DNA of 63,493 nt, the filler included, from Reclinomonas americana ATCC 50394 (lineage: Eukaryota): the NCBI GenBank assembly GCA_048213135.1. It is 17 parts of 17 records of this genome, joined end to end, with 100 filler letters (N's around TTAATTAATTAA, not from the genome) between each part and the next. Parts side by side here need not be neighbours in the genome. Positions count along the whole stretch, not along the records: positions 21,109 to 29,369 come from AFZH01018185.1; 16 more parts are not named here. One strand, given 5' to 3'. The notes beneath the pieces are model-generated. The model made no database searches. It was not told the DNA's origin and saw nothing but the letters and a program-made list of their open reading frames with translations. This document shows, one piece after another, positions 21,995-24,900 of this stretch. The translations under genes and the position numbers were made by a program. Each line of letters begins with the position of its first letter. Within the stretch, counting starts at the first letter, position 1.

Positions 21995-24900
21995 TCAGAG
22001 CGACCACACTCGCAAAGTCCAGTCGTCACTTCCACTCACAATGTGTTGACCGTCAGCAGTGACAGCAACAGATTGCACCGTGTCGGCATGCTCTCCAAAC
22101 CGTCGCATTTCCGCACCAGTCGCCAGTGACCACACACGCACAGTTCTGTCCCAACTCCCACTCACTATGTGGTGGCCGTCGGGAGTGACAACGACAGATC
22201 GTACTGAGCCAGTATGTCGGGCCAACAGTCGCATTATTCTGCCACTCACCAATGACCACACTCGAACTGTATTGTCTCTGCTCCCAGCCACAACGTGTTG
22301 ACCATCGGGAGTGATTGCAACTGATAGCGCATGATCAGCGCTCTCCTCCAACCGTCGCACCTCTTTTCCAGATGCTAGTGACCACACTCGAACTGTCGCG
22401 TCACAACCCCCACTCACAACGCACTGGCCATCGAGAGAAACAGCAACAGACAACACTGCACCAACGTGCCCCTTCATCCGTCTTACTTCTTCACCACTTG
22501 CAAGAGACCATACACGTACTGTCTTGTCACAACTCCCGCTGACCACGTGTAGTCCATCAGCGGCAACAGCAACTGAGTACACCGCGTCAATGTGCCCCTC
22601 GAAACGTCGCACTTCCTCGCCACTCGCCAGCGACCATACGCGCACTGACTTATCTCTGCTTCCACTCACAATCTGTTGCCCATCCGGGGTGACGGCGACA
22701 GAATAAACTGTTCCAATGTGTCCCTCCAATCGACGCAATTCTCTTCCAGTTGTGAATGACCACACTCGTATAGTCATATCGTCACTTCCGCTTACAATAT
22801 GCTGCCCGTTAGGTGTCACTGCAACTGATAACGACGCACGCATGTGACCCACAATAGGTTTCCTCCGTCGCTTCGGTTCTGTCATGTGCCCCTCCTGAAC
22901 ACGTAGGGAAAAGATATCATTCTCAGACACTTGAAAGGCTTCCGGAAGCGCAGATCCTAAAACTTGACGAACTAACCCTGTCGCTGGAACATCAGCCCAC
23001 AAAAGGCAAGAAGCGTCATTCTCAGACTCTTGTACGGCTTCCGGAATCACAGGTCCTAATACTCGACAAACCAACCCTGTCGCTGACTCCACTGCAACAA
23101 TTTGCCGGTACACCGTGATACCAAGCACAAGTGATTCGAGCTCACACAATGAATTGACTAATACTTCGTCACAGGGACTGACTGAAACTGTCTTTCCAGA
23201 CAGAAGTTCACATTGTACAGTAACACCATCCGCATCACAACTGATCGCATGAACGCCATCTCTCAAGACTGACACGGATGTCACTCTGGAAGCATGGCCC
23301 ACAAGCAGCCAGACTGCATTCCCACTGTCTGCAGACCAAGCGCGCACAGCATTGTCTAGCCCACCGCTGATGAAAAGTCGGCCATCTTTCGTTAACGCCA
23401 GACACGTTACGCCGCCAGTGTGCCCAGCGAAGCGATGTATTTCAGCACCCGTGTCACTTCGCCACACGCGAACAGTACAATCAGCACCACCTGTGACAAC
23501 ACTTCGACCATCAACGCTCACGGCTAGAGCATTGACGGCGCCCATATGGCCCTCCAGGGTGCGCAATACTTGGCCAGTCAAAAGTGAGAGCAAACGCACA
23601 ACACCGTCTGTGCAACTAGTGTATAGATGGCAACCGTCTGGTGTTACCGCCAATGCTGTTACCTCACCGTGATGACAACAATCCTTCCATAGTTGCAAAC
23701 CATCAATCGGTGACCACAGCTGCACTGTCCAATCACTACTGCAGCTCACACATCGAATCCCAACACTCATCTCAACAAATGCCACTCCATTAATGGTATC
23801 TGTGTGCCCACGATAAACTTGCAGCTCCTCGCCAGTGCTGATTGACCACACTCGAATCAGTGGACCAAGGCCACCAGTGACAGCGAGCGCACCGACTGGC
23901 GTCATGGCACATGCAACGCACCGCACCCCGGCGCCGTGACCACCGAGTCGACGCGCATGCTCGCGATTATCGGTTGACCACAGGCGAACAGTGTCATCTT
24001 GGCTGCAACTGCCAATGAGTCCGTTTGCTGCTGCTGATACAGCATGCACGACATCCAAATACCCATCAAATCGAAAGACCTCACAATAGCTGACAAGTGA
24101 AAACACTCGAACTGAGTGATCAGCCATCCCACAAGTTATGTGGTCACCGTCAGACAACAGTACAGCGACAGTCCTCAATTCTTGCTGCGAGTCAAATCTA
24201 AACAGTCTCAGCTGCTCGCCGTTGGACAGAGACCAGGTACGAACCGTGCCGTCATCGCTGCCACTGACTATCCACTGATCATTGGCTGTGATTGCCACAG
24301 ATCTAACCTGACTTTCATGGCCCCTTATGCACAAGCCTCTCTCACCCGTCAGCAGCGACCATACCCGCACAGTTTTGTCACGACTACCGCTTACCGCAAT
24401 TCTACTATCAGAAGTACATGCCACAGCAAGTACACCACCGCGATGGTCGCAAAAGCACCATTTCTCAACACCGTTGGAAACGTAGTACACACGCACGGTA
24501 TTATCGTCGATTCCGCACACAACATATCGACAGTCACGAGTCAACGAAATCGCTGCGACGGGAGACTTAACGTCCAGAGACTGCCAAACCAGTGGTGCTT
24601 CGTCATCAAGGCCCAATGGCCACACACATACCGACCCATCTGCGCCACCACCGACAACGAATTGGCCATCGAATGAAATTGTAATTGACTCGACAACTGA
24701 AGAAAATGGTTTGACACACCGTCTTTCTTCGCCATTAGGCGACCACACTCTAAGCGATCCATTTGTACAACCCCCGGCAATTCGATGCCCAAATGAGGAG
24801 ACTGCGACACAAGTAACCAATGTACTACTGTGCCCCACCATCGGCTTCCTTGGCCAGTTCACACCCGTCACATTCGCCCCTCTGAAATCCGCCTCCCTAG

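Follow-up and report, generated by a model that had tools for sequence, protein, structure and literature searches.

A third WD40 propeller of the array blade family at the C-terminus of a NACHT-pentapeptide-WD40 STAND protein in Reclinomonas americana

We analysed a window of 63,493 nucleotides (nt) from Reclinomonas americana ATCC 50394 (assembly GCA_048213135.1). Positions count along this whole stretch, and all results come from one scaffold of one organism. The window contains an open reading frame (ORF) for a STAND protein resembling a NOD-like receptor (NLR), which occupies 21995-27241 on the minus strand and has 1748 codons counted from the first GTG; its first ATG lies at 27116-27118 and is codon 42. 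It also contains three clusters of free-standing WD40 genes with a single propeller each, which we call the arrays; 16 of them are complete and 4 are interrupted by assembly spacers. The NLR has three propellers, P1, P2 and P3 (P1/2 denotes the first two together). We report here that the last one, P3, is built from the same family of blades as the arrays.

The predicted product of the NLR ORF is a NACHT-pentapeptide-WD40 STAND protein. From the N-terminus, a helical region of about 260 amino acids (aa) is followed by the NACHT NTPase, pentapeptide repeats, 13 divergent blades and one degenerate blade, a linker, seven further blades and the stop. At the sequence level, this is the tripartite STAND layout of an N-terminal region, a nucleotide-binding oligomerization domain, and C-terminal repeats that form a superstructure. 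The NACHT domain (25832-26323, on the minus strand like all features of this ORF) matched PF05729 at 33.5 bits against a cutoff of 26.7. It has both a Walker A motif (the P-loop, 26279-26305, aa 313-321) and a Walker B motif (an hhhhDGYDE stretch, 26063-26092, aa 384-393). The pentapeptide repeats lie between NACHT and the first propeller (24857-25003; PF00805, 31.8 bits against a cutoff of 20.2). P1 and P2 (23207-24868) consist of the 13 divergent WD40 blades and have low internal conservation. The degenerate fourteenth blade and the open-reading linker (22883-23206) matched no Pfam family, and the linker ahead of P3 measures 108 aa. P3 (22001-22882) has seven array-type blades with an exact 42-aa period, without a single indel or stop across 294 codons, and its array-type homology spans about the first GH to the last VWS. 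The stop codon (21995-21997) sits within a linker-like remnant (21981-22000) that corresponds to an inter-blade linker minus one base. In all, 20 NLR blades were detectable by profile in addition to the degenerate one; the P3 blades, b14-b20 here, are repeats 15-21 of a first-pass annotation of this DNA.

The arrays form clusters A (529-5894, plus strand; four genes, Wa-Wd, complete with start, seven blades and 68-aa tail), B (10704-16760, minus strand; four genes, We-Wh, on the strand of the NLR and downstream of it) and C (37535-50651, plus strand; eight complete genes, Wi, Wj, Wk, Wm and Wo-Wr, and four spacer-cut pieces, Wl1, Wl2, Wn and Ws). The array genes have a conserved start (ATG context), seven blades and a conserved tail of 68 aa. 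We found 19 copies of the tail (e.g., 13909-14112, minus strand), every one of them behind an array. The tail is made up of a helix-like stretch, an acidic run and a conserved C-terminal block. No homologue of it was found among the near-length proteins in a set of 5.8 billion (two candidates, neither of which scored), and it had no match in the Atlas; in Pfam, it hit GM130_C alone, at 15.4 bits and under the cutoff of 23.5. A signalling motif common to the tail and the NLR was considered and dropped, as the best E of the tail against the NLR N-terminus was 0.62 and the tail and the linker gave no alignment at E ≤ 100. The scaffold codons of the arrays are under purifying selection, with omega (dN/dS) of 0.15-0.47 across 11 array gene pairs. 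Judged by their reading frames and substitution pattern, the arrays are complete, selected genes with a private tail and not silent cassettes.

Some neighbouring arrays have identical blades. Wg and Wh are identical in blades 3 and 4 (14482-14733 and 16242-16493), and Wj and Wk in blade 4 (39207-39332 and 40493-40618); the remaining blades of both pairs differ. In the Wg-Wh pair, omega was 2.28 at the hypervariable codons described below versus 0.15 elsewhere. The identical blades indicate recent duplication or conversion, with change focused on the contact residues.

A blade profile was built from three blades of the array gene at 13906-15000. The profile scored the P3 blades at 48.5-76.2 bits, the first 13 NLR blades at 9.2-39.2 bits, and full-length array blades at 37-100 bits. 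Identity to the consensus of 96 array blades was 0.64-0.79 for b15-b20 and 0.50 for b14, compared with 0.29-0.52 for the eight ungapped blades of P1/2. The first-pass annotation had described the last propeller as an array-type cassette and repeats 1-14 as far more divergent, and both descriptions held. Mean nucleotide identity was 0.65-0.67 between P3 and the arrays and 0.67-0.73 among arrays; it was 0.48 between P3 and P1/2 and 0.47-0.48 between P1/2 and the arrays.

With the array gene Wg as a query, 473370 proteins were retrieved at E ≤ 0.001, with best identities of 50-56%. Protein similarity alone is therefore weak evidence of relationship for WD40 repeats, and a control at synonymous sites was needed. 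The proportion of synonymous differences (pS) between P3 and the arrays was 0.58-0.61, and the corresponding dS of 1.12-1.26 was unsaturated; dS among array blades was 0.70-0.90 (Nei-Gojobori estimates pooled across blade pairs regardless of register). For P1/2, pS was saturated, at 0.79 against P3 and 0.80-0.81 against the arrays, and P1/2 and P3 have the same codon usage. Where P3 and array residues were identical, the codons were identical as well in 0.49-0.51 of cases, against a baseline of 0.31-0.32. BLASTN of P3 against the arrays gave high-scoring segment pairs (HSPs) of 400-780 nt at 71-74% identity in several registers, and the best single pair of blades was 76% identical in DNA. Since the synonymous sites of P3 and the arrays are unsaturated despite the codon usage that P3 shares with P1/2, common descent explains the similarity, rather than codon bias or convergence on a WD40 consensus. 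Thus, as judged from these substitution patterns, P3 and the arrays are one blade family by descent.

The array blades combine a nearly fixed scaffold with a few hypervariable positions. Among 93 distinct array blades, entropy exceeded 2.5 bits at unit positions 14, 15, 16, 18, 34 and 36. Omega at these six codons was 0.34-2.28, versus 0.15-0.47 elsewhere, in the 11 array gene pairs (a pairwise estimate and not a site model). The P3 blades vary at the same unit positions. Positions 16 and 18 flank the conserved V17, and positions 34 and 36 flank the conserved D35. In the HET-E and HET-D proteins, codons 7/9 and 25/27 are positively selected around the conserved codons 8 and 26 and belong to the interaction surface, according to the sections of Paoletti et al. 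2007 (PMC1805685) on these repeats. The hypervariable pairs of the arrays have the same pairing and the same 18-residue spacing as the HET-E/D codons given there, and the register between the two would follow from this spacing. These paired positions are seen in the arrays; for P3, what is seen is the variability among its own blades. Scaffold aa identity was 0.68 between P3 and the arrays and 0.70 between array clusters, and identity at the six hypervariable positions was 0.11 and 0.13, respectively. At scaffold codons, dN/dS between P3 and the arrays was about 0.16 (0.18-0.22 over 1.12-1.26).

High internal conservation (HIC) of repeats has been defined as Psim ≥ 0.70, and in the passages of Ament-Velasquez and Saupe 2026 (PMC13449251) that give this threshold, HIC repeats occur in 22.04% of ATPase-bearing repeat proteins versus 5.59% of others. 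Free HIC propellers by themselves therefore have precedents. In our own implementation on ungapped 42-aa units, which is not T-REKS, Psim was 0.72 for P3 (0.74 with six blades instead of seven), 0.70-0.86 for the arrays, and 0.50 for P1/2 (eight ungapped blades). Thus, P3 and the arrays lie in the HIC range, whereas the first two propellers of the same protein lie below it.

We examined both ends of P3. The stop region reads TGG TCG CTC TGA GTGG. The 20 nt past the last P3 blade aligned to the inter-blade linker with one base missing and a score of 9, which was equalled by 0 of 300 shuffles and by 4 of 284 background 20-mers. The same 20 nt scored 3, the null level, when aligned to the tail-type ends of the arrays themselves. 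These scores bear out the earlier suggestion that the stop arose within a further repeat linker. Re-inserting the missing base led to another stop four codons later. No eighth blade was found after the stop: nhmmer gave no match at E ≤ 1000, no BLAST HSP crossed the stop, and nothing blade-like extended beyond about 16 nt. Because nothing blade-like lies past the stop and a second stop follows when the base is restored, we take the end of P3 to be real and old. At the other end, P1 and P3 had been noted to begin alike, and they do. P1 opens with RKPMVGH (24830-24850) and P3 with RKPIVGH (22844-22864); the two agree at 17 of 21 nt, and the four that differ are all third codon positions. This is the sole match of at least 6/7 to that region within the whole protein.

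The first-pass annotation further held that the NLR and the arrays share or exchange repeats. Sharing agrees with the pS values and the long HSPs; continuing conversion does not agree with what we observed. Neither BLASTN nor a comparison of the best 60-nt windows revealed a near-identical tract between P3 and any array. The best local matches (30 nt at 93% and 59-60 nt at 90%) both fell on VRVWS-linker-EGH, the most conserved core of the blade. The best 60-nt window of each array had 49-54 matches with P3, versus 49-55 between array clusters. In a GENECONV-like run test of our own implementation, the longest P3 run was 19 over 77 polymorphic unit columns, and it was reached by 7 of 200 column permutations. 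As a positive control, We against clusters A and C gave 0/100, and five other arrays gave 6-70/100. The conversion that had been proposed between the NLR and the arrays thus received a borderline result and no tract above the between-cluster level. The hypervariable signature of a P3 blade overlapped that of any array blade at no more than 4 of the 6 positions, as between array clusters, and P3 blades and array blades 1-7 showed no positional correspondence. The G+C content at third codon positions (GC3) was 0.47 in P3, 0.46 in the other NLR propellers and 0.62-0.68 in the arrays. Departures from the array consensus were of the GC>AT kind in 75 of 118 cases in P3, and in 689 of 1382 cases in array blades. 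In addition, dS among the P3 blades (1.39) exceeded dS between P3 and the arrays (1.12-1.26); P3 blades are farther from one another than from the arrays, as expected of a copy that has departed from a homogenised pool. We found no evidence of current exchange between P3 and the arrays.

Trees were computed for whole propellers and for single blades. In the unrooted whole-propeller tree, P3 was a single branch of length 0.37 in a basal polytomy, beside Wi (0.32) and Wm (0.27), and the only deep starred split separated Wo-Wr from all else, P3 included. In the blade tree, 60 of 105 inner branches were open, and little was resolved beyond the long P1/2 branches. The grouping of the NLR's last repeats with the arrays in a nucleotide tree of individual repeats, which the earlier annotation implied, came out in part: six P3 blades were scattered among the array blades, and b14 was not.

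The explanation that we favour, with a probability of about 0.6, is that P3 is an array-family propeller that was joined to the NLR long ago and has since evolved alone. A complete seven-blade HIC propeller would have been added to the C-terminus of a STAND protein with NACHT, pentapeptide repeats and 14 WD40 blades, in an ancient duplication or fusion event whose age would be roughly that of the deepest splits of the array family. After joining, P3 would have evolved alone, with its scaffold under purifying selection and its hypervariable residues becoming unique. Its composition would have drifted toward that of the NLR's other propellers, while the arrays stayed nearer the common consensus. 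By analogy with other STAND and NLR proteins, the C-terminal repeats would hold the NTPase off until a ligand binds, and P3 could be a second, array-type recognition surface added to an older double propeller. Ligand binding would then permit NACHT to oligomerise and the N-terminal helical effector, perhaps a HEPN nuclease, to act. The free array proteins would be paralogous binders with a conserved tail of their own.

Several observations weigh against this reading. In the blade tree, b14 was placed with P1/2 blades, at a support of 10. The run test was borderline and not null (7/200), and rare, old conversion between P3 and the arrays may have occurred. The opening of P3 resembles that of P1 rather than that of an array gene, and an inter-blade linker takes the place of the array tail at its end. 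With a P1-like opening and a linker end, and without the array entry strand or tail, it is not the product of a simple whole-gene fusion; these ends suggest that the source of P3 had more than seven array-type blades, or that internal unequal recombination occurred. The trees are unrooted and star-like; they do not fix when the transfer took place or whether it ran from array to NLR or from NLR to array. The NLR block is linked to the arrays through scaffold joins, on which their proximity depends. Finally, the sensor role, the autoinhibition and the HEPN effector are drawn from analogy.

Other explanations of the similarity between P3 and the arrays were weighed against these data. It is hardly credible that the two have no specific relationship and merely converge on a stable, consensus-like WD40, since convergence, for which the commonness of such proteins (the 473370 retrieved with Wg) could speak, would not account for synonymous sites that are shared (pS of 0.58-0.61 against about 0.80 for P1/2, with its P3-like codon usage), the excess of identical codons, or HSPs of 400-780 nt at 71-74%. 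An assembly chimera, with an array gene wrongly joined to the NLR in a repeat-rich draft scaffold, has to be considered because the window consists of 17 sequence blocks and 16 spacers (e.g., 21009-21108, 29370-29469 and 41508-41607). Each spacer consists of 44 N, TTAATTAATTAA and 44 N, its central 12 nt being a six-frame stop linker, and several of the joins interrupt array genes and an XRN1 gene. However, the NLR, the linker, P3 and 886 nt of 3' flank all lie within a single gap-free block (21109-29369), P3 resembles P1, P2 and the linker in composition and not the arrays, and it is identical to no array, which makes a chimera highly improbable. The arrays had also been proposed as a specificity reservoir. 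Under ongoing exchange, they would donate blades to P3 by gene conversion or unequal crossing-over, in the manner of HNWD concerted evolution or of cassette systems. P3 and the arrays are of the same blade family and near each other on the scaffold, the run test was borderline, and conversion or recent duplication does occur among the arrays (the identical blades of Wg-Wh and Wj-Wk, and We against A and C at 0/100). Nevertheless, the top identity between a P3 blade and an array blade is 76%, no tract rises above the between-cluster level, GC3 differs (0.47 vs. 0.62-0.68), dS is 1.1-1.3, and no hypervariable signature is common to both. The arrays, as complete ORFs with scaffold omega of 0.15-0.47, are also a poor fit to a reservoir of cassettes, and we regard ongoing exchange as improbable.

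The remaining alternatives concern the direction of descent and the function of P3. The arrays might descend from P3, or from an ancestral, longer array-type repeat of the NLR, and might then have gained a start and a tail and multiplied. This has a tentative place beside the favoured reading: a related R(K)P(I/M) entry strand opens P1, P3 and the array genes, the linker at the end of P3 points to a source with more than seven array-type blades, HIC repeats are enriched in NLR architectures (22.04% vs. 5.59% in the cited part of PMC13449251), and the distant homologues P0005 and P0006, described below, bear near-identical repeats. The unrooted trees favour neither direction, and the P3 blades look derived relative to the array consensus, although gene conversion homogenising the arrays would look alike. 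A different reading takes the free propellers and the NLR as one recognition network in a eukaryote that is neither plant nor animal, in which the NLR would guard the family through its integrated copy, or the free propellers would be trans-acting sensors or competitors for the ligand class of P3; we consider it rather doubtful. Its guarding variant is close to an integrated decoy, in which parasite effectors would target the array proteins and the NLR would carry P3, a fused copy of them, as bait, on the model of the plant NLRs with integrated domains (NLR-IDs). Formally, P3 is an extra domain behind a linker and homologous to an expanded free host family, and no blade of the five distant homologues attains an array-type score. 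But the hypervariable face of the arrays is more like that of receptors than that of conserved targets, the surface of P3 does not mimic any one array in particular, and the ORF lists and Pfam scans of the 63.5-kb window contain no second NACHT or NB-ARC ORF that could be a paired helper NLR. A decoy is accordingly unlikely, and the old joining of an array-family propeller to the NLR remains our preferred explanation.

Other features of the NLR were recorded. The N-terminal all-helical domain (26342-27118) contains an R-x4-H motif (26675-26695, aa 183-189). It had no match in a Pfam scan and no relative in a sequence search of the PDB. Its nearest Atlas clusters were HEPN_Swt1 (0.81) and HEPN_DZIP3 (0.78), both below the 0.9 level, and a 44-aa stretch is common to it and the homologue P0003 (E 0.010). 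The single-sequence AF2 model consists of helices only, with a mean pLDDT of 44, and is hence unusable. The N-terminal effector may be a HEPN-type nuclease, which we treat only as a lead. The linker contains a 33-aa tandem duplication (about 22886-23083, minus strand; identity 17/33 aa and 68/99 nt). The start of the duplication resembles a WD inter-blade linker plus strand D, and the duplicated units may be a pair of collapsed blades. Compared with the 5' flanks of the arrays, the linker showed nothing beyond chance matches of 17-18 nt. In the 3' flank of the NLR, a 66-nt repeat (21701-21766) is 91% identical, in inverted orientation, to 51973-52038.

Base composition changes along the NLR. 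GC3 drops sharply near codon 800 (about 24840), from 0.55-0.68 to 0.40-0.52, and then remains low and T-rich over all of P1, P2, the linker and P3, beginning with the first WD blade. Codons 301-800 have a GC3 of 0.60-0.66, a G3 of 0.44-0.60 and a C3 of 0.06-0.17. The NTPase half and the WD half of the gene may have had different histories or mutation regimes. In both P3 and the arrays, changes of the C>T and G>A kinds relative to the blade consensus are over-represented at CpG. C>T changes precede a G in 11 of 24 cases in P3 and 79 of 161 in the arrays, and only 8 of 23 consensus C sites are in CpG. Cytosine methylation or a repeat-directed mutation process could underlie this pattern.

Two neighbouring genes stood out. 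An XRN1-like gene (32586-36804, minus strand) is split into at least four ORFs in different frames, whereas the NLR and array genes are uninterrupted. Its N-terminal exon is followed by one scaffold spacer and a CT-rich low-complexity stretch, and the splitting may reflect introns, gaps or frame errors. The best protein relatives of the exon are 33-58% identical, mostly from fungi and insects. Between clusters A and B, an ORF at 9116-10765 (minus strand) contains TPR_10 and TPR_12 repeats (41 and 38.8 bits) and a hydrophobic end. Repeats of this type are common in NB-ARC-type NLR sensors, and no NTPase was seen adjoining this ORF.

HIC repeats with hypervariable contact residues are thought to generate new specificities in fungal and other NLRs. 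In this window, most blades of that kind belong to some 20 free single-propeller genes; one further set makes up an extra propeller on an NLR already equipped with an ordinary double propeller. Should P3 and the arrays prove to be functionally linked, the locus would exemplify in nature how an NLR outside plants gains a sensor domain from a family of free binders, or sheds one into such a family; the connection between such repertoires and a STAND switch could then be put to the test. If the network reading is true, the binding surfaces of the array family would amount to a germline repertoire, and the guarding variant of this reading would be an NLR-ID outside plants. Without a functional link between P3 and the arrays, the locus would still clearly illustrate how members of a blade family depart from a homogenised pool and go their own evolutionary way.

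We compared the locus with distant homologues and known systems. A search with the NLR found seven proteins at E ≤ 0.001, five of which (P0002-P0006) share the repeat architecture. These five are 25-29% identical to the NLR across the N-terminal 760 aa (HMMER E from 1.9e-27 to 4.7e-13). Like the NLR, all five have PF00805 and WD40 families in their precomputed Pfam lists, where NACHT (PF05729) is visible for P0002 and P0005; P0005 and P0006 have near-identical repeats. Unlike the NLR, they have no array-type blades (at most 34 bits, against 48-76 for P3), and none has a separate array-type third propeller behind a linker.

Donor-cassette diversification is known from lamprey VLR, pilS/pilE and vls. 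The resemblance to such systems is that many copies of a repeat type lie beside one receptor gene. Silent donor cassettes are incomplete or unexpressed and share identity tracts with an expression site, whereas the would-be donors here are intact and selected, have their own start and tail, and share no identity tracts with the receptor. The plant NLR-IDs (e.g., HMA in Pik-1/RGA5) resemble the NLR in having an extra module homologous to multi-copy free host proteins, at the C-terminus here, as the integrated-decoy and NLR-ID concept is outlined in the parts of PMC5067614 and PMC4759884 drawn on here. In this formal sense, P3 is such a domain, with 16 complete and 4 partial free genes as its homologues. 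The differences are that P3 and the sensor which the receptor already has belong to one fold class, that the lineage is another one, and that the NTPase clade is NACHT and not NB-ARC.

The nearest known kind is the fungal HNWD/HIC NLR family, as in Podospora anserina (het-e, het-d, het-r and nwd genes). The likeness extends to the NACHT and WD40 architecture, to a near-invariant blade scaffold with paired hypervariable positions at the same spacing (in the repeat data of PMC1805685), to a single blade family spread over several loci, and to Psim of at least 0.70 in P3 and the arrays. Blade DNA identity here is 65-76%, not 80-100%, and there is no sign of current exchange with the NLR. Repeat exchange of the HNWD type is thus not seen for P3; identical blades do occur among adjacent arrays. 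Here, pentapeptide repeats separate NACHT from WD40. The systems also differ in that most blades here are in free single-propeller genes without an NTPase, and in that the NLR combines a double propeller of low conservation with one HIC propeller behind a linker.

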